NCBI GenBank assembly: GCA_963771355.1
Contig: CAVYTA010000005.1
Location: 480,001 to 544,000, forward strand
DNA length: 64,000 bases
Origin: an uncultured Candidatus Rokubacteria bacterium
GTDB lineage: Bacteria; Methylomirabilota; Methylomirabilia; Rokubacteriales; CSP1-6
Reading direction: 5' to 3'
Shown here: positions 6,793-16,647 of the stretch, in pieces
Layout of the letters: the number at the start of each line of letters is the position of its first letter
Numbering within the stretch: position 1 is the stretch's first letter
The notes under the pieces: generated by a model
The model's input: only the letters and a program-made list of their open reading frames with translations
What the model was told of the DNA's origin: nothing
Database searches by the model: none
Made by a program: the position numbers and the translations under genes

Positions 6793-6821
6793 TTGACGGT
6801 GTCGGGCGACATCTCTAGCAT
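6793..6821 (+). promoter_or_regulatory. sigma70 promoter of the WD40-RTX-T1SS operon, with an inverted repeat in the spacer
   Basis: TTGACG-17 nt-TAGCAT; the spacer contains TGTCG-GG-CGACA (6800-6811). Confidence 0.6.
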
Positions 6822-6862
6822 CCGCTCGTGATCGGCACACCGTGGAGCCGAAGGAGGAGCGG

Positions 6863-7969
6863 ATGACGAGCAAGGCGGCGACGAGAAGAGTCGGCGGACA
6901 CCACATCGCGTTCGCCACGCTCGTGATCGTTCTCCTGGGCTGGGCGGGGATAGGGGTCGAGCCCGCGTGGCTCAACATCGACGCGTTCCAGTTCTTCGCC
7001 AAGGCGGACGCGGACGCGCCTCGGCTCGTCCGCATGTTCGCTCACGACGGCGAGATCGGCGCCATCGCTTGGAGTCCGGATGGCGAGAGGATCGCCGCGG
7101 GGGGACAGCTCCATCGAGCGCTGATCATCTGGGACGCCCGGTCGGGTGCGCGGCTACACACGCTGGACAAGGAGGATGGGTCCATTACCTCGGTCCGGTG
7201 GAGCGGCGACGGGCGCTACCTGGCCGCGGGAAGGATGTTCACGGCGGCGACGCGGAGCCATGTGGCGATCAACGTCTGGGATGCGCAGACCGGTCGACGG
7301 GTCCATGGCTTTCTGGGGCCGGACCCGGCGCGGCCAGAAGCGAATGACGTGCGCAGTGGTGCGTTGGCCTTCTCCCCCGATAGCACCCTTCTTGCGGCAG
7401 GGCACGTGGGCGCGGTGTCGATCCATGAGGTCGTGACCGGAAAAAGGCTGCCGATCGCGAGGGGACACGTGTCGATTGGCAAGGTTGTCGCATTCACCGC
7501 GGACTCGAGGCTTGTGGTGACATCCGGTCCTGCGCACGGACCCGTCATCCAAGTATTTGACGCGATGTCGGGGATTCCGGTTCGATCCTTTACTGGTGGT
7601 GATCAATCCCCCTTTGCTTTGGCAGTACGGTCTGATGGGCTCGAGATCGCTTCGGCCAACTTCCAGCAGCCGGAGATCAGCGTCTGGGATACGGGTTCAG
7701 GTCGAATTGTGCGCATCTTGACCGGACACACCTGGCCAATCCGCGCCCTCGAATACAGCCGTGATGGTCGGTTCCTGGCATCCGCGGCTCCCGGTGGCGG
7801 CGTGATGCTCTGGGATGCGAAGACCGGGGCCCGCCTGTCGAGCCTGCCGAATCCTTCGGAGTACGTCGACTGTGTCGCGTTCAGTCCCGATGCCCGCTAT
7901 CTGGCCGCTCCATTCGAGCGGACAGTTCGCATCTGGGACATCTCAAACCTTCACTCGCGCCACGAGTGA
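6863..7969 (+). CDS. WD40-repeat beta-propeller protein with N-terminal membrane anchor/signal
   Basis: About 7 repeats such as AWSPDG..IA......LIIWD, GHTWPIRALEYSRDG and VRIWD; hydrophobic N-terminal segment; RBS AAGGAGG before ATG6863. Confidence 0.9.
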   Translation: MTSKAATRRVGGHHIAFATLVIVLLGWAGIGVEPAWLNIDAFQFFAKADADAPRLVRMFAHDGEIGAIAWSPDGERIAAGGQLHRALIIWDARSGARLHTLDKEDGSITSVRWSGDGRYLAAGRMFTAATRSHVAINVWDAQTGRRVHGFLGPDPARPEANDVRSGALAFSPDSTLLAAGHVGAVSIHEVVTGKRLPIARGHVSIGKVVAFTADSRLVVTSGPAHGPVIQVFDAMSGIPVRSFTGGDQSPFALAVRSDGLEIASANFQQPEISVWDTGSGRIVRILTGHTWPIRALEYSRDGRFLASAAPGGGVMLWDAKTGARLSSLPNPSEYVDCVAFSPDARYLAAPFERTVRIWDISNLHSRHE

Positions 7970-7986
7970 GCTAGGAGAGCCGAGCC

Positions 7987-10900
7987 ATGGCCAGCAACCT
8001 GGAATACGCGAAGCTGAGCGCCTATGTCTACAGCGACGGAGGGCCGGCGCGGCCACCGCTTCCACAGGATTGGGTTCCCGTCATGGGATCCAATGGGTTC
8101 CCGCTTCAATCGTGGGGTCCGAGCGGATACTACGGGGCGGTATTTCGCAATGTGGTGACGGGCGAGTACGTCCTTGCGTCGCGGGGAACCGAGATCAGCG
8201 ATCCCGGAGATCGCGCGGCCGACTGGGCGATGTTGAAGGGGCAAGCCCCGAGGGCTCAGCTCAACGATGCTGAAGCGCTGCTGGCTCGCGCAATAGAAGA
8301 GGGCGTGCCGATAGCGAGTCTAACGTACACCGGCCACTCGCTGGGGGGAACGCTCAGCCAGCTTCTGTCGACGGGGAGCATGCGCCCGGCAGTGACATTC
8401 AATGCGGCCCCTGCGCGGGACTTGCTTCCGCAGCTGGGACGCGACCCGGACCGGCAGTATCCGATCGTCGACATCGTCGATCCGGCCGATCCGATTGCGT
8501 CCCTGGGCCGACATCTGGGGACGCGAATTCTGCTCGCGGCGGATTCATTCACTCTCTCGCCGGCCATGATGGCCTTGTACCTGGGCTCGGACCGAGGCGG
8601 GGGCGGGGGCTTCGTCACCATTGCCATGGAGGCGCGGGCGGCCCACTCCATCGACAGCGTGGCCAGAAAGCTCGATGCCGCCTGTTCCATCAACCCGTGT
8701 CCGGTGATCCTCGATCTCGACGGCGATGGGGTGGAGACGCGATCGGTTCAGTCCGCTTCGTTCTTCGACCACAATGCGGACGGATTCGCGGAGCAAACCG
8801 GCTGGGTCGGGGCGGATGACGGTCTGCTGGTCCTGGATCGAAATGGAAACGGGCGGATCGACTCAGGGCGGGAGCTCTTCGGCAATCACACTCTTCTGGC
8901 CAGCGGCATGGAAGCGCAGAACGGCTTCCAGGCGCTTGGCGCGCTGGACACGAACGGGGACGGGAGGGTGGACTCGAACGACCCGGCATTCACCCAGCTT
9001 CGTATCTGGCGTGACGGGGATGGAGACGGTGTCAGTGTTCCCGGCGAGCTGGCCACGCTGTCGGCCTCCGGTGTCCAGTCGATCTCGACCGGTTACGCGG
9101 AGGCGAGTGCGGTCGATCCGCAAGGCAACACGCACCGTCAGGTCGGCTCCTTCACCCGGACGAACGGCACCCAGAGCGTCGCCACGGACGTGTGGTTCAG
9201 CGCGGCCCCTCAGCACACCATTGCCAAGGACTGGATACTGTTGCCTCCGCACATCGCGGAGCTGCCGGTGGCACCGGGGTTCGGGACGGTGCGGGACCTG
9301 AGTCAGGCCATGGTGCGGGACTCGAGCGGCGCTCTGGAAGGGCTCGTCAGGAGCTTCATGTCCCAGACCGACCCTGCGCAGCGCGCGACGACTCTCGAGC
9401 AGATACTGTTCGCCTGGACGGGGACGACGGGTGTCGACCCCTCGAGTCGGGGTTCTCTCATGGACGCTCGGCGGCTTGCGGTCCTCGAGGCGTTCGCGGG
9501 CCGCCCGTTCTTGAATGGATTCGGGCCCAACCCGACCGAGCCGGCGGTGCCTCCGCTCATGGAGGCGTATACGGAGGTGCGCGAGCTCGTCTACGCGGAG
9601 CTGATGCTTCAGACGCACCTGAAGCCGTTGGATGCGCTCATCACCTACGCGTGGGATCCGGTGACCAGGAGCTCACGCGGCGACCTCGCTGCGGTGGCCA
9701 CCGCTCTCGAGGCCCGGCTGGCGCAGGATCCGGCTGGCGGACGGGCGCTGCTCGGCGAGTTCGCGCGGGCCGTCCGTGCGTTGGATGGCGAGGAGACGCT
9801 CGGCTACTGGGCCTTCCGGGATCGCTTGGCGCAGCGTGGCGGGGATCTTCTCTGGGTCATGGATTCTGCGGGCCGGCCGGTGGTCGGAGGCTCCGGCGGC
9901 GGGGAGACGCTCAATGGGACAAACGAGGCCGACGCGCTTCAGGGGGGCGCGGGGGCCGACACTCTCGCCGGCAGGCTCAATGGCGACACGCTGCACGGAG
10001 ACGCGGGCGCGGACGTCCTTTACGGCGAAGACGGGGACGATCACCTGGTGGGCGGAGCCGACGACGACCAGCTGTACGGCGGGGCCGGCGACGACCGGTT
10101 GGAAGGTGGAATTGGTAACGACGACGTGAGCGGTGAGAACGGTAACGACACCCTGGTCGGTGGTGACGGCGACGATCGGCTCGGCGGTAATGATGGTGAC
10201 GACGTTCTTCATGCCGGGCCCGGGCGAGACACCCTGGACGGCGGCCGGGGTAGTGATGTCTATGTGCTCGGGCGGAGTACCGGTCAGGCAACGATCAAAG
10301 ACAACGATTGGGCCTTTCCCGCCACGGACGTGATTCGTGTCGAGACCGGGATTACGCCCAAGGAGGTGATGGCCGCCCGGGACGGGGTCGATCTCGTGCT
10401 TCGCGTGGTGGGAAGTCCGACGGAACTGCGCCTGCACTGGTGGTTCAACGAAGGCTTCGGCTACGAGTACCAGGTGCAGCGAGTGGAGTTCACGGACGGC
10501 ACGGTGTGGACCACCGACACCCTCCGGGACCTGGTCACGCGAGGCACCGAGGGCCCGGACAGCATCACCGGATTCGGTACTTCCGATGTTCTGCGCGGAC
10601 TGGGGGGTGACGATACCCTCGCCGGGGCCGGTGGTGACGACCGTCTGGAAGGCGGCACCGGCAAGGACACGCTCTACGGAGAGAGCGGCAACGACACATT
10701 GCTGGGCGGACCCGGGGACGACGCGCTGGACGGCGGCCTGGACAGCGACACGTATCAGTTCGCCCGCGGGTTCGGGCGAGACACCATCTACGACAACGAC
10801 TGGTGGCGGCCCAGCCTCGATCGCGTCGTGTTCGAGGCGGGGGTGACGCCCGCGGATGTTACCGGGACGAAGGATGGCTCTGACCTTCTGCTCCGCCTCT

Positions 10901-12303
10901 CGGGCGGTACTGACGAGATCCGTCTGCACGGATGGTTCGCCGGCGGCGTGGACTACGCGTATCAGGTGGGCGAGGTTCGATTCGCGGATGGCACCGTCTG
11001 GGACCTGTCTCGCCTGCAGCAGATGGTCTTGCAAGGGACCCCGGGTGCCGACACCATCAATGGCTACGACACGTCCGACGTCATGAATGGCTTCGCGGGC
11101 AATGATCTCCTCTTCGCCTGGGGCGGCGATGACCGACTCGATGGCGGGGCGGGCGCGGACTGGATGCAGGGGGGTACGGGCAACGACACCTACGTCGTCG
11201 ACGAGGTGAGCGATGCGGTCTACGAGTCGCCGGGCCAGGGCAGCGATACCGTCGAGAGCACGATCAGCTACACGCTGGGAGCGAATCTCGAAAACCTGAG
11301 GCTGACCGGTGCGGCTCCCATCAACGGAGCCGGAAACGAGCTTGTCAACTCGCTCACGGGGAATGCCGCCGCAAACGTGCTCGACGGTGGACCGGGGGCG
11401 GATATCATGAGCGGCGGCAAGGGAAACGATACCTACGTGGTGGACAACACGGTGGACAAGGTCCTCGAGTCGTCCGGCCAGGGGGTCGATCGCGTAGTCT
11501 CCACGGTGAGGTACACCCTTCCCTCCAACGTCGAGAACCTGACGCTCTCGGGCTCCGCCGTGGTCGATGCCACCGGGAATTCGCTGAGCAATGTGCTGAT
11601 AGGGAACAGCGCCGCCAACACGCTCAGCGGAGCCGCGGGAGCGGACAGCATGTATGGCGGCGCGGGCAATGACACGTACGTTGTCGACAACGCCGGCGAC
11701 CTCGTAACCGAGCTGGTGGGGGAAGGAGTCGACTCGGTGAAGAGCTCGCGCACCTACGCGCTGACGGGCAATGTGGAGCACCTCATCCTGACCGGGACCG
11801 GAGCCATCAGCGGTACCGGAAACATCCTCGACAATTCGATCACCGGCAATACCGGAGCCAACACGCTGTCGGGAGGGGCCGGGTCGGACGTTCTCACCGG
11901 GGGAAGAGGAAGCGACACGTATCTATTCGGTCGCGGTAGTGGTGTCGATCGGATCGTGGAGAACGATGCGACGACGGGCAACTCGGATCGCGCCCTGCTC
12001 GAGGCCACCATTCGTCCCATCGACATCGTCCTCGACCGTAGTGGAGATAGCCTCCGCCTCGCCTTGTGGGGGAGCCCGGACACGCTGACGGTTCAAGACT
12101 GGTATCGCGGATCGGCGAACCGGGTCGAGACCATTCAGGCGGGAGACGGCCGCCGCCTGGCGTCGACCGGGGTGGACCAGCTGATCCAGGCGATGGCCGG
12201 CTTCAGCGGCAGCACGGGTCTGAGCTGGAGCGAGGCGGTGGAGCAACGGCCCGCGGAGGTGGAAGCCATCCTCAGCGCACACTGGCAGCCGGCGTCGATC
12301 TGA
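7987..12303 (+). CDS. RTX Ca-binding exoprotein: N-terminal lipase domain + FrpC-like self-processing module + RTX repeats
   Basis: ASRGTE, GHS118LGG, TFNA, D168, H220; [10 protein letters not shown]...[19 protein letters not shown]; many GGxGxD nonapeptides; C-terminal [12 protein letters not shown] secretion tail. Confidence 0.9.
11182..11910 (+). repeat. three tandem 243-bp (81-aa) RTX beta-roll units inside the RTX gene
   Basis: NDTYVVD codons at 11182, 11425 and 11668; units are diverged at the DNA level. Confidence 0.8.
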
Positions 12304-12342
12304 GCCCAGCGGACCCCACGCGGCCGTGCAATCCAGGTTGGT

Positions 12343-14514
12343 ATGGACTCGGCTTCTGCCGATTCGAGCCTCTCCGAGAGCGGGGTGCTGGGCCTGGCCA
12401 CGATCGCCCGCTTTCACGGGGTGTCCGTGGACCTCGACGGTCTGCGGCGAGTGCTGGGGGCCTCGGGCGCCCACGTGACCTGCCGCCGCCTCGTTGCCGC
12501 CGCGCGCCGCATCGGTCTGAAGGCGCGTGAGGTCTCGGGAGGCTGGGAGCGGCTCGCTCGTGCGCCCCTCCCGGTGCTGGGAGCGCGCCGGGACGGGCGC
12601 TACGTCATCGTGCTCCGGGTGGACCAGACCCGGGCCCTTGTCCAGGCGCCGGGGACGACGGCGGCGGCCGTCGTGCCACGGGGCCAGTTCGAGGAGGAAT
12701 GGGCGAGGCGTTTCATCCTGCTCGCGAAGCCGAGACTCCCCGCGCCATACCAGGGCCGGTTCGGCCTCGCCTGGTTTGTCCCCTACGTCACACGATACCG
12801 TGGCCCCCTCTCCCAGGTCCTCGTCGCATCGCTGGTCCTGCAGCTCTTCGCCCTCCTCACTCCGCTCACCACCCAGGTGGTGATCGACAAGGTCCTCGTA
12901 CATCGGGGACTGGTCACGCTCGACGTCGTCGCCGCCGGCATGCTTCTCCTCCTCGCGTTCGAGGGCGTACTCGGCGGACTGCGTGCGTACCTCCTGGCGC
13001 ACACCACGAGCCGAATCGACGTGGACCTCGGGATGTGGGTGGTCCGACATACCCTGCGGCTTCCGCTTGCCTACTTCGAGGCGCGACGGGTTGGTGACAC
13101 AGTGGCCCGGATCCGAGAGCTCGAGAGCGTCCGCCACTTCTTGACCGGCCCGCCCCTGACCGCCATCGTCGACACCCTCTTTGCCGGAGTGTTCGTGGTC
13201 ATCATGCTCCTCTACAGCGTGTCCCTCACCGGGGTGGCGGTCGCCGCGCTCCCCGCCTATGCGGTGCTCTCGCTCGTGGTGACGCCGCTCTTGCGTCGGG
13301 CGGTGGAAGAGCGCGCTCAGCGGGGGGCCGAGTCCCACGCCTTTCTCGTGGAGTCGGTCCGGGGTATCGAAACGATCAAGGCGATGGCGGCGGAGCCTCT
13401 CCTCGAGCGCCGATGGGAGGAACACCTCGCGGGCCTCGTGCGCGCGAGTTTCCGAGCCGGGCAGCTCGGTCAAGTCGCCGGGCATATCGCCTCGACCCTC
13501 GGCAAGCTCACCGCGCTGGCCATACTGTGGATGGGCGCGCGCGCGGTCATGGAGGGCGAGCTGACGGTGGGGGAGCTCATCGCCTTCAACATGCTGGCCT
13601 CCCGCGTCACCGGTCCGGTGCTCCGGCTCGTCCAGCTTGGGCAGGAGCTGCAACAGGCTCGCGTGGCGGTCGAGCGCCTGGCGGATCTTCTGGAAGCGCC
13701 GACGGAGGTGCCGGCGTCCGGCTCCCAGCTGTCATCCGGTCGTGTCGAAGGGCGGATCCGGTTCGAAGCGGTCTCATTCTCCTATCGGGTGGGCCATCCG
13801 GATGCGTTACGCGAGCTGTCCTTCGCGATCGAGCCTGGCGAGGTGGTGGGGATCGTGGGCCCGTCGGGGTCGGGCAAGAGCACGGTGGGCAAGCTCCTCT
13901 CCCGCCTGCACGTGCCGCAACGCGGCCGAATCCTCGTGGATGGTCTCGACGTGGCGCATTGCCATCCCGCCTGGTTGCGTCGGCAGGTGGCGGTGGTGCC
14001 CCAGGAGACGACTCTCTTCACCGGTTCGGTGCGGGAGAACATAGCCTGGGCCGATCCCGGCCTGCCGCTGGACAGCGTGATCGGCGCGGCGAAGCTGGCG
14101 GGGGCACACGATTTCATCATGGGGCTTCCGGCAGGCTACGACGCAGCCGTGGGCGAGCACGGCGCCTTGCTGTCGGGAGGTCAGCGACAGCGGCTAGGCC
14201 TCGCCCGCGCCCTCGTCATGCGTCCGGCCATCCTGGTCCTTGACGAGGCCACCAGTGCCCTCGACTACGAATCCGAGCGCGCGATCGAGCGCAACTTGAG
14301 CGTCATCTGTCGCGGTCGGACCGTGCTCGTCATCACCCATCGCTTGAACCTCGTGCGGCGCGCGAACCGCGTTATCGTGCTCGAAGCGGGCGGTCTCCGC
14401 GAGCAGGGTAGCCCAAGCGAGCTGCTCGCCGCGGGCGGGTATTTCGCCGGGTGGGAGCGCGAGCAGCCGGAGCCGCTGCCGCTTCCGCTCCGCGCTCGAG
14501 GCAGTTCCGCGTGA
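12343..14514 (+). CDS. hlyB: type I secretion ABC transporter (HlyB family, C39-like domain)
   Basis: QVVIDKVLVHRG; Walker A GPSGSGKS; LSGGQRQR; LDEATSALD; the C39-like N-terminus lacks the catalytic Cys. Confidence 0.93.
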   Translation: MDSASADSSLSESGVLGLATIARFHGVSVDLDGLRRVLGASGAHVTCRRLVAAARRIGLKAREVSGGWERLARAPLPVLGARRDGRYVIVLRVDQTRALVQAPGTTAAAVVPRGQFEEEWARRFILLAKPRLPAPYQGRFGLAWFVPYVTRYRGPLSQVLVASLVLQLFALLTPLTTQVVIDKVLVHRGLVTLDVVAAGMLLLLAFEGVLGGLRAYLLAHTTSRIDVDLGMWVVRHTLRLPLAYFEARRVGDTVARIRELESVRHFLTGPPLTAIVDTLFAGVFVVIMLLYSVSLTGVAVAALPAYAVLSLVVTPLLRRAVEERAQRGAESHAFLVESVRGIETIKAMAAEPLLERRWEEHLAGLVRASFRAGQLGQVAGHIASTLGKLTALAILWMGARAVMEGELTVGELIAFNMLASRVTGPVLRLVQLGQELQQARVAVERLADLLEAPTEVPASGSQLSSGRVEGRIRFEAVSFSYRVGHPDALRELSFAIEPGEVVGIVGPSGSGKSTVGKLLSRLHVPQRGRILVDGLDVAHCHPAWLRRQVAVVPQETTLFTGSVRENIAWADPGLPLDSVIGAAKLAGAHDFIMGLPAGYDAAVGEHGALLSGGQRQRLGLARALVMRPAILVLDEATSALDYESERAIERNLSVICRGRTVLVITHRLNLVRRANRVIVLEAGGLREQGSPSELLAAGGYFAGWEREQPEPLPLPLRARGSSA

Positions 14515-15836
14515 ATCGCCGCTATCGGATCGATCCTGACGATCTCGAATTCTTGCCGCCCGCCGCCGAGACCCGGGAGCGGCCCCCTTCTCGCCTGGGC
14601 GTCCTCCTTGGGCTGGTGATCGTGCTCGTCTTCGTGGGAGCCATCGTCTGGGCGTACCTCGGAACGGTGGACGTGATCGCGGTAGCTCGGGGACGACTGA
14701 TCCCTAGAGACCGCACGCAGGTGGTGCAGGCTGTCGATCCGGGGGTGATCCGCCGAATTCACGTTCGTGAAGGCGCCACCGTCCGCAAAGGGCAGGCGCT
14801 CGTCGAGCTCGATCCCACCACCAGCGACGCCGAGGGAACGCGACTGGAGCACGAGCTTCTCGATGCGCGGCTGAACGCCGCTCGTCTGCATGCGCTCCTC
14901 GCCGGGGCGGCGAGCCTTTCGCCTCCGCCGGCCGCGCCAGTCGAGGCGGTGATCCTTCAACGCCGGCTGCTCGAGGACCAGCGGTCCGAGCATCAGCGGC
15001 GGCTCGTGGCCGCGGGGCTCGCGACCGAGCAGCGGTCCGCGGCGGTGGCGGCGACGGCCGCGAACGTGGAACGGCTCCAGACCGTCGTGGCCATCCAGAC
15101 GCAGCGGGCGGCGGCTTTCCGGGCATTGCTCGACCAGCAGTTCGTCGCCACGCTCCAGTTTCTCGAAGTCGAGGAGCGCCGAGTGGACAAGGTCCAGGAG
15201 CTTGCAATCGAACGGAGGCGGCTCGAGCAGGAGCACGCCGCCCTCGCGGAAGCGGTGGCCCGCCACGAGGTCATCGACGCCGAGTTCCGAAGCGCACGGC
15301 TCGCCGAGCTCGCGAGCTGGGTTGCTCGCGCGGGCTCGCTCGCCCAGGAGCTGGTCAAGGCCGTCCGCCGCCGCTCGATGCAAAGGCTGTCGTCGCCGGC
15401 GGATGGGGTGGTGCAGCAGCTCGTCGTGCACACCATCGGAGGCGTGGTGGCCGCCGGCCAGCAACTCATGCTGATCGTGCCGGTGGAGGGAGGGCTGGAG
15501 GTCGAGGCGTGGGTGGACAACAAGGACGCGGGCTTCGTGCGAGCCGGTCAGCCGGTTGCGCTGAAGATCGAAACGTTTCCCTTCACGCGATACGGTACTG
15601 TCCCGGGGTCGGTGGTGGCGATCTCCGCGGACGCGGTGTCGGTGGAGCGCGTGGGCTCCGTCTACCTCGCGCGCATCGCGCTGGAGCGCGACGCGGTGGA
15701 TGTGGATGGCGAGATGATCGCGCTCGCGCCCGGGATGAGCGCCGCGGCCGAGATTCAGATCGGCCGCCGCCGCGTCATCGAGTACTTCCTGAGCCCGCTC
15801 CTGCGCCGGAGCTATGAGGCGCTCCGCGAGCGGTGA
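14511..15836 (+). CDS. hlyD: type I secretion membrane fusion protein (HlyD family)
   Basis: EFLPPA, TM, coiled coil, FPFTRYG, PGM..AEIQIGRRRVIEYFLSP; GTG start overlaps the hlyB stop. Confidence 0.93.
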   Translation: MNRRYRIDPDDLEFLPPAAETRERPPSRLGVLLGLVIVLVFVGAIVWAYLGTVDVIAVARGRLIPRDRTQVVQAVDPGVIRRIHVREGATVRKGQALVELDPTTSDAEGTRLEHELLDARLNAARLHALLAGAASLSPPPAAPVEAVILQRRLLEDQRSEHQRRLVAAGLATEQRSAAVAATAANVERLQTVVAIQTQRAAAFRALLDQQFVATLQFLEVEERRVDKVQELAIERRRLEQEHAALAEAVARHEVIDAEFRSARLAELASWVARAGSLAQELVKAVRRRSMQRLSSPADGVVQQLVVHTIGGVVAAGQQLMLIVPVEGGLEVEAWVDNKDAGFVRAGQPVALKIETFPFTRYGTVPGSVVAISADAVSVERVGSVYLARIALERDAVDVDGEMIALAPGMSAAAEIQIGRRRVIEYFLSPLLRRSYEALRER

Positions 15837-16232: not shown

Positions 16233-16647
16233 GCCATTAGTTGCCCGGCGCCGCCGCCGGTCCGGGTCCAGTCGCCGGAGTGGATCGTCACCCGGTAGCT
16301 CGCGCCCGGCTTCTTGGGTCGCACCCAGAAGTAGGTGCGGCCGTCGAACGGCACGTCGCTGTCCACGTGGGCGATCTCCTGGGCGATGGGCTGCCCCGCG
16401 AGCGTCGAGCGACTCCACCAGCAGGCGCACGCGCGCGGCGCCCAGTCCGCTGGAGTTGAGATAGACATAGCCCGAGACGACGGGGCGCCCGCTGCGGTCC
16501 GTGCTGGGCGAGGCGTCGATGCGGAAGTAGCTGCGCCGCGTTCTGCGGGGTGATGCCCTGGGCCTGGGCGTGGCCGGCCCAGCCGGCGAGGAGGAGGGCC
16601 GGCAGCAGGCCGAGCAGGGCGCGGCGGGGGAGGGTCACGGAGCGCAT
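16229..16647 (-). CDS. small exported FxLYD-like protein, paralog 2 (two +1 frameshifts, near 16530 and 16401)
   Basis: Removing two bases gives PRRALL...QYFRID...SGYVY...VRLLVESLDAAGQPIAQEIAHVD...RTYF...SYRVTIHSGDW. Confidence 0.7.

Follow-up and report, generated by a model that had tools for sequence, protein, structure and literature searches.

A putative type I-exported lipase with a predicted membrane-anchored WD40 partner and a Cys-Pro variant of the FrpC self-processing module in an uncultured Candidatus Rokubacteria bacterium

What is secreted by an operon that mounts a lipase on a long RTX stalk, what would shield the producing cell from that lipase, and how, if at all, is it released? 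These questions are raised by four genes on the forward strand of a 64,000-nucleotide stretch of DNA (the window; positions 480,001 to 544,000 of contig CAVYTA010000005.1, GenBank assembly GCA_963771355.1) from an uncultured Candidatus Rokubacteria bacterium, in which a promoter is followed by the genes for a WD40 beta-propeller, an RTX protein, HlyB, and HlyD. The original prediction, made from the letters alone, described one promoter and four tightly linked genes, with 17 nt between the WD40 stop and the RTX start codon, and proposed a lipase toxin delivered by a type I secretion system (T1SS) against bacteria or eukaryotes, with the WD40 protein as its immunity factor or chaperone. The layout was borne out by open reading frame (ORF) calls and a promoter scan, and comparisons of related loci show that the cargo at the N terminus, together with the partner encoded upstream, is a swappable cassette on a conserved chassis of self-processing module (SPM), RTX stalk, and T1SS. 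With moderate confidence, we read the operon as encoding a T1SS-exported antibacterial lipase and a periplasm-facing WD40 immunity protein.

Lipase cargo and WD40 partner

The RTX protein (7987..12303, +; 1438 aa), the presumed T1SS substrate, runs from a lipase domain through an SPM-like module and a linker into an RTX/HCBP stalk. Conservation and the fold matches of its model identify the first domain (7987..8682, +) as a class-3-type alpha/beta-hydrolase. The motifs of a compact lipase were found at the very residues named from the letters, with RGTE from residue 66, S118 within GHSLGG, TFNA at 137, D168, and H220, and the predicted triad of S118 (8338-8340), D168 (8488-8490), and H220 (8644-8646) is invariant across 39 aligned rows. 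An AlphaFold model of residues 1-415 (predicted local distance difference test score [pLDDT] of 83.7) places the domain nearest to class-3 fungal lipases (Z 17-18), the top fold matches being fungal lipases and plant phospholipase A1 (PLA1); it also matches the Enterobacter cloacae type VI secretion system (T6SS) effector Tle (9CYS; Z 16.3, root mean square deviation 3.6, 189 aligned) and LipA (2QUA; Z 16.2). From its sequence we infer that the lipase is enzymatically active. Lipases of this type were said at the outset to occur on antibacterial type IV secretion system (T4SS) and T6SS effectors, and so they do: the T4SS domain XVIPCD is fused to the lipase in 3 of 45 shorter homologues, and a Nevskia homologue ends in a PAAR domain (T6SS). 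Since homologues ride on XVIPCD, PAAR, and RTX carriers, the family is, as far as sequences indicate, cargo of three secretion systems, although a domain scan of the window's RTX protein returned no PAAR, VgrG, or XVIPCD, these being seen in homologues only.

The WD40 gene (6863..7969, +; 368 aa; PF00400 above cutoff), the candidate immunity gene, encodes seven WD-type blade-end motifs behind a single N-terminal hydrophobic helix, for which hydropathy and charge asymmetry predict an N-in/C-out membrane anchor (residues 14-32; 6902..6958, +). Among 40 close homologues, the helix is present in all, its N-terminal side is basic in 39 (the exception is N-terminally short), and a lipobox is found in none; an LGWAG..P motif is conserved around the anchor. 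The conserved helix, basic N-side, and missing lipobox together predict an inner-membrane-anchored protein with its propeller facing the periplasm, a topology that disfavors a cytoplasmic form of the chaperone role once offered as an alternative to immunity. Tli, the immunity partner of Tle, protects solely when periplasmic and also has a cytosolic activating role (10.1101/2023.03.28.534661); by analogy with the latter, a chaperone side-role of the WD40 protein may exist. Complex prediction for lipase residues 1-236 and WD40 residues 45-364 gave a score of 0.00, but the controls were not folded, and the result is used neither way.

If the WD40 protein guards against the lipase, the two should keep company. 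A query with lipase plus SPM found matches in 13 of the phylum's 251 genomes, including the source genome (G000), in 11 of 158 in the family, and in 5 of 7 in the genus, and we compared 11 relative loci within the phylum. The gene-neighborhood search proposed at the outset found a WD40 gene directly upstream in 9 of the 11, that is, in every one of the 9 lipase-bearing relatives that allow the test. In one of the other two (L022) the contig begins inside the lipase, and the second (L025) carries M23 cargo and a different, PD40-type propeller. This latter locus (L025:7503-14570; genome G165) has the same SPM-RTX-hlyB chassis, on which the cargo is an M23 peptidase and the junction Ser-Pro, and its upstream propeller has a leader peptide. 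At the more distant loci, WD40 and lipase are the two least conserved parts and diverge faster than the SPM, stalk, and exporter: G221 has values of 32% for WD40, 37% for lipase, 55% for SPM, 61% for HlyB, and 69% for FBPase, and G111 has 27%, 25%, 54%, and 55% for the first four of these.

Beyond the phylum, 77 loci were retrieved with the lipase alignment, from the best 80 of 220 confirmed stretches; 57 have an N-terminal lipase and upstream room, 50 of them with a same-strand upstream gene at -45 to +75 nt, and at least four RTX repeats occur in 37 of those 50. The upstream partner belongs to one uncharacterized family in 44 loci, is a WD40 protein in 5, and is something else in 1, and 40 of the 50 partners have an N-terminal hydrophobic segment. 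(The automated partner scan missed the WD40 gene of L046, which the phylum locus comparison shows in the same genome.) WD40 genes also accompany lipases that lack RTX repeats: in Nevskia (L047), two in tandem precede the lipase-PAAR gene, whose product is likely a T6SS effector for which the beta-propeller immunity is duplicated, and in Syntrophaceae (L049) a single one lies before a stand-alone lipase. The second tandem gene of the Nevskia locus (L047:3728-7038) carries a lipobox-like motif.

The 44-member family consists of signal-peptide or lipoprotein-like proteins of roughly 190-260 aa (e.g., L048:2709-3416; L048-L117) that span Proteobacteria, Nitrospirota, and others and lie directly upstream of N-terminal-lipase genes, mostly RTX-bearing. 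It has no Pfam or NCBIfam match (model pLDDT, 83.4). We considered a likeness to FrpD or Smlt3025 and found it unsupported, with no PDB sequence match and no Foldseek hit at an E value of ≤0.001; the best match among 48,161 chains reached Z 4.5, and a missing match does not exclude kinship with either protein. We regard this family as a candidate new immunity family. Of the 251 phylum genomes just one has it; it was seen in none of the 158 at family level and not in G000, so the two kinds of partner seem to exclude each other. As judged from these gene neighborhoods, the partner goes with the lipase rather than with the exporter and can be exchanged, which is the behavior expected of immunity genes. 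Co-occurrence, codivergence, and pursuit of the lipase outside T1SS thus back the immunity half of the original proposal for the WD40 protein.

The cargo is exchanged as well. When the first 260 residues ahead of related SPMs were clustered, 146 sequences fell into 66 clusters, the largest of which (36 members) is this lipase; of 50 cargos scanned, 3 are M23 peptidases, 1 is LysM, 1 is DUF6973, 5 are RTX repeats only, and 40 have no Pfam match. One four-member cluster (L124:2135-2590) without a Pfam hit has motifs that we take to resemble those of phospholipase A2. Four loci (L146, L151, L156, and L157) each contain two SPM-bearing ORFs with a single gene between them, and in L146 a signal-bearing gene stands ahead of each cargo-SPM; these loci resemble toxin-immunity cassette arrays. 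Such cargo diversity has the layout of polymorphic toxins with the toxin at the N terminus, a position that would suit a C-terminal secretion signal.

The Cys-Pro junction of the self-processing module

The module that follows the lipase (8701..9219, +) is a true homologue of the FrpC SPM (6SJW), matching it at an E value of 1e-46 with about 47% identity, and its model superimposes with Z 23.8 (root mean square deviation 2.5, 166 aligned). Port residues of the FrpC SPM have been named (PMC7078468), and these are kept here together with the Trp pair and EF-hand-like sites: W273, W341, L297, G299, G313, and D401 are all retained. N300 replaces D478 and H383 replaces L561, so that of the fifth-calcium ligands the D579 equivalent (D401) is present and the D478 equivalent is Asn. 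The larger departure lies at the junction (8698..8703, +), where the scissile Asp414-Pro415 of FrpC is replaced by Cys238-Pro239. All 25 close homologues have this pair, and its Cys is the only one of the protein in 17 of them. In FrpC, the Asp414 side chain forms an anhydride, and D414A abolishes cleavage (PMC7846742). With Cys238 in place of Asp and these published data in hand, the known clip-and-link (Asp-anhydride) chemistry is excluded for this sequence. The module would have to use a different cutting chemistry, if it cuts at all, and its label of self-processing, carried over from the original prediction, denotes homology as read from the sequence rather than an established activity. 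A structural disulfide as the reason for Cys238 was set aside on the strength of the homologues in which it is the sole Cys, an argument that reaches an intramolecular bond only.

This substitution is not peculiar to the window. Sister loci have Asp-Pro (G221 and G223) or Ser-Pro (G222, G165, G117, and G111) at the junction. Of 25,703 representative hits, we surveyed the best 150: in 88 proteins with a single SPM, Pro occupies +1 in 87, preceded by Ser (72), Cys (7), Asp (6), or Thr (2). In the 176 domains of multi-SPM proteins from the same 150, position -1 is often Pro (36) or Ala (35), and 30 domains lack the Pro. Several of these proteins (P0089-P0188; 900-7700 aa) carry between two and four SPM-like domains, in many cases close to the C terminus, with Pro or Ala at -1 or no proline; by their sequences, such domains are probably noncutting calcium-binding repeats. 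An independent metagenome sample, whose search patterns leave out the -1 position, gave 81 domains from 77 of 78 loci, with Ser in 49, Asp in 21, Cys in 10, and Thr in 1.

Pooled and de-duplicated, 154 single-SPM junctions have only four residue types at -1 (Ser, Asp, Cys, and Thr), versus 18 at -2 and 17 at -3; Ser, Cys, or Thr accounts for 128 and Asp for 26. Cys makes up 0.25% of these proteins and fills 14 of the 154 junctions, and it requires 7 changes on a 98-row tree, with at least four of them forced by well-supported branches, while Ala (9.2% of these proteins) and Asn (6.1%) are absent from all 154. A His equivalent to His383 occurs in 109 of 128 Ser/Cys/Thr-type modules versus 4 of 26 Asp-type modules, and the D478 position is Asp in 21 of 26 Asp-type versus 16 of 128 other modules. 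This combination hints at a nucleophile aided by His, as in the autoproteolysis pattern of GAIN/MAIN domains (10.64898/2026.05.12.724683).

Competing readings of the operon

If the antibacterial reading is correct, the RTX protein would be exported unfolded by HlyB and HlyD, would fold in extracellular calcium, and would expose rivals to a lipase that attacks their membranes, while the WD40 propeller would bind and block any lipase that reaches the inner membrane of the producer or its kin. Any release step would be a cut by the SPM through Cys238; otherwise, the lipase would stay tethered at the stalk tip. The parts for export are in place. The stalk (9892..12300, +) comprises RTX nonapeptide repeats, three HCBP_related stretches, and a C-terminal region where the secretion signal is expected, with 25 loose G..G.D nonapeptides and PF00353 in 13 stretches (208 bits), in agreement with the long stalk first described, and inspection of the protein's N-terminal sequence revealed no hydrophobic leader. 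HlyB (12343..14514, +), with a C39-like domain (PF03412), scores 850 on TIGR01846 against an NCBIfam cutoff of 726, and HlyD (14511..15836, +), the periplasmic adaptor, scores 354 on TIGR01843 against 209. As noted from the start, the locus has neither hlyC nor tolC, and there is no room in it for either; no hlyC match was found in G000, nor did the control genomes give one. Two OEP-family channel genes lie elsewhere in G000, above the PF02321 cutoff, and export would presumably borrow one of these distant TolC-like channels.

Several observations count against this reading. Both channel genes fall below the TIGR01844 cutoff, a Pfam-A scan makes no lipase call on the N terminus of the RTX protein, and the sequence match of the lipase to Tle is weak (E value, 0.12). 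A secreted protein has no obvious entry into the periplasm of a diderm rival, and for FrpC itself there is an adhesin reading in which FrpD is the tether (PMC5233953). Cutting at the junction meets objections of its own. Covariation of His383 and Asn300 is inseparable from lineage (4 independent pairs; P = 0.5), with V249 differing nearly as much; H383 is outside the published port residues; and at least 90% of the 25 homologues have Pro before Cys238, the same -2 position at which Pro left minimal cleavage in the FrpC SPM (PMC7846742). Because both SPM samples were ranked by likeness to the window protein, any claim about most SPMs is limited to this protein's neighborhood. We accordingly place the cutting reading, in which Cys238 would act as the nucleophile of an N-to-S acyl shift at Pro237-Cys238, a little short of an even chance.

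Its main competitor keeps the toxin-immunity logic and makes the Cys-Pro module an inert calcium-binding spacer, with Ser, Cys, Thr, or Asp merely capping a turn and the lipase never released, and we think this possible but doubtful. The need for Asp414 in FrpC, the Asn at fifth-calcium ligand D478, Pro237 directly before Cys238, and the nonsignificant covariation test all suit a spacer, and tandem SPM-like repeats that tolerate Pro and Ala at -1 make noncutting SPM folds plausible. Asn, a usual turn-capping residue, is nonetheless missing, with Ala, from the 154 junctions, whereas the rare Cys recurs there through separate changes on the tree, and the FrpC port residues are kept, all of which counts against a spacer. 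The literature covered has no account of Ser/Cys-Pro SPM cleavage, most subscription papers (including Osicka 2004) and supplementary SPM alignments (e.g., that of PMC12538545) being outside that coverage. One broader proposition we advance only tentatively, as on balance unlikely: that the locus clearly belongs to a large, barely recognized T1SS polymorphic toxin system, built of an upstream immunity gene, an N-terminal toxin (lipase, M23 peptidase, or one of dozens of unknown cargos), an SPM, and an RTX stalk, in which most SPMs, at least near this one, release the toxin through a calcium-triggered Ser/Cys/Thr N-to-O/S acyl shift with a conserved His, not an Asp anhydride.

The remaining alternatives concern the target. 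That the lipase damages protist or fungal membranes, with the WD40 protein guarding against incidental self-damage, would accord with the many RTX proteins that target eukaryotes (PMC3034196), with the fungal and plant lipases among the top fold matches, and with a eukaryotic plasma membrane being easier than a periplasm for a large secreted protein to reach. The sister chassis, however, bears an M23 peptidase, as do 3 of 50 other cargos. Peptidoglycan is the target of M23 peptidases, and this swap leads us to favor an antibacterial over an anti-eukaryote role; relatives on interbacterial XVIPCD and PAAR carriers, the missing hlyC, and a hemolysin model (NF033943; 253 against a cutoff of 1000) whose best stretch is in the repeats, the N terminus having the lipase fold instead, likewise make a eukaryotic target improbable. 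The original choice between the two targets thus gains comparative support for a T1SS-exported effector with an envelope partner, on the antibacterial side. A nutritional or matrix-remodeling exoenzyme like the family I.3 RTX lipases, with the WD40 protein as a periplasmic inhibitor akin to serralysin Inh, strikes us as quite improbable: T1SS-secreted RTX lipases are known and RTX protease operons do contain protease-inhibitor genes (PMC3034196), and the fold is common, as the LipA match attests, but I.3 lipases are reported to be Cys-free and to need no extra gene products (PMC3034196), the I.3 lipase model (NF050046) scores 64 against a cutoff of 670 and on repeats only, and conflict systems are a better fit for the 66 cargo clusters, the partner duplicated in tandem, the cassette arrays, and a cargo and partner that diverge faster; the patchy distribution (11 of 158 family genomes) also speaks against an exoenzyme of this kind. 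Least probable in our estimation is an adhesin or surface tether of the kind proposed for FrpC-FrpD, in which the cut N-terminal fragment would be covalently linked to a surface and held by the partner. Gene order and SPM are the same as in FrpD-FrpC, FrpD, a proposed tether, has an affinity of about 0.2 nM for FrpC1-414 (PMC5233953), and in principle a target could be acylated by a Cys-derived thioester; the WD40 homologues, however, lack a lipobox, their conserved single helix predicts an inner-membrane/periplasmic site and not the cell surface, and the cargo retains its full catalytic triad.

Returning to the antibacterial lipase with WD40 immunity, its nearest counterparts support the logic without claiming the locus. 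Neisseria meningitidis FrpD-FrpC and Actinobacillus pleuropneumoniae ApxIVA share an upstream envelope partner, a variable N-terminal domain, the SPM, the RTX stalk, and T1SS export; the window differs in its Cys-Pro junction and Asn for D478, in a recognizable lipase cargo, in having exporter genes in the same operon, and in a helix-anchored WD40 propeller where FrpD is an outer-membrane lipoprotein. An adhesin reading of FrpC and its variable N terminus are described in PMC5472700 and PMC5233953, while PMC6759196 reports a T4SS effector with homology to domains at the N termini of 221 large proteins, most of them RTX, places X-T4SS effector genes behind an upstream immunity gene, and hypothesizes that FrpC is an antibacterial effector of the T1SS, with FrpD as the immunity protein. 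The E. cloacae Tle-Tli pair (7UBZ/9CYS) and the Xanthomonadales X-Tfe/X-Tfi lipase pairs share the GHSLGG class-3-type fold and an adjoining envelope-located partner (predicted here), but the window lipase is on a T1SS RTX stalk and not injected, and Tli is an ankyrin lipoprotein (10.1101/2023.03.28.534661). Lacking Asp-Pro, FrpD, and an injection signature, the locus resembles FrpD-FrpC in its layout and Tle-Tli in its cargo and partner, and by its sequence features it is a member of neither.

More distant comparisons run in the same direction. PMC3034196 lists I.3 RTX lipases and RTX bacteriocins of uncharacterized mechanism; the bacteriocins (Rhizobium RzcA, Xylella XF2407/XF2759), compared by description only, are large T1SS-type RTX proteins with a proposed antibacterial role, to which the window adds a defined enzyme cargo and a candidate immunity gene. 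Family I.3 lipases (Serratia LipA, Pseudomonas PML) share the lipase fold, RTX repeats, and T1SS export, but they are about 480-620 aa, Cys-free, with no SPM reported and no partner gene, and 12-15% identical in structural alignment, against 1438 aa, an SPM, a conserved Cys, and a linked partner here. Toxin domains fused N-terminal to RTX-like repeats are described in 10.1101/2025.01.14.632903, and lipase-like toxin domains are listed in PMC3482391, the covered part of which does not mention FrpC or WD40. In PMC12538545, every SPM homologue assayed is reported to have cleaved. Under the acyl-shift reading only, GAIN/MAIN, ZU5, and HINT domains would be comparable in pairing a side-chain nucleophile with His for an N-to-O/S acyl shift and cargo release (10.64898/2026.05.12.724683; PMC3482391), although the SPM fold is unrelated to theirs. 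The original view that the architecture was undescribed stands for the lipase-plus-WD40 version, of which the literature covered, lacking most subscription papers, has no WD40 + lipase-SPM-RTX description; the general layout was already known from FrpD-FrpC, a hypothesized effector/immunity pair, and from RTX bacteriocins, and the present version is a new variant of it.

Genomic setting and significance

Transcription of the operon is predicted to start from a sigma-70-like promoter (TTGACG-17-TAGCAT; 6793..6821, +; one found against 0.2 expected in shuffles), and a similar site lies upstream of WD40 in all four relatives examined. For WD40, the start at 6863, with a ribosome-binding site AAGGAGGAG at 6851-6859, is preferred over 6842, and the 16 closest homologues (368-369 aa) start at the position equivalent to 6863. 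The RTX and hlyB genes are 39 nt apart, and hlyD more likely starts at 14511, where its GTG overlaps the hlyB TGA (GTGA), than at the alternative 14451. The G+C content of the operon region (0.65) is slightly low for the genome (~0.70). No second copy of WD40, lipase, or SPM was found elsewhere in G000 (tblastn), and PADLOC gave nothing meaningful. The closest named relatives are Candidatus Rokubacteria/Methylomirabilota records (85%, 58%, and 56%).

Contigs from four RNA libraries (three soil or rhizosphere studies) contain near-identical pieces of WD40, RTX, and hlyD, one of them spanning 7932-8082; these are evidence of the presence of the locus and not of its transcription, because the contigs possibly derive from DNA and neighboring genes are covered too. 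Downstream of the operon (window:15852-17489, -) lies a tandem run of three or four small paralogues whose leader peptides contain Arg-Arg; one of them is weakly FxLYD-like (E value, 0.005), and the run is conserved beside the operon in same-genus genomes. The amidase and TRAP DctM genes (window:2365-5618) are split across frames, and contigs differ from the window by single-letter length changes at 16240 and 16531; all of these are probably assembly indel errors outside the operon. Genome G181 has similar frame breaks inside its own operon copy.

For two decades there has been no agreement on what FrpC-like RTX proteins do: they are read either as adhesins or, by hypothesis, as antibacterial effectors. 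With an enzyme cargo that can be assayed and a partner that can be swapped, the effector/immunity hypothesis becomes open to direct tests in Escherichia coli. In the literature covered, SPM processing is described solely at Asp-Pro, whereas the Asp is replaced by Ser, Cys, or Thr in 128 of the 154 related single SPMs. If the acyl shift is real, the Cys-Pro form would yield a protein thioester inducible by calcium, and thus a kind of autoprocessing chemistry that is new for a fold already known, and should Ser/Cys/Thr SPMs cut, they would supply a calcium-switchable, possibly thioester-forming module useful for protein ligation. In that event, dozens of unknown cargo-partner pairs would become candidate toxins and immunity proteins, and the uncultured Candidatus Rokubacteria/Methylomirabilota lineage would gain a defined competition system.

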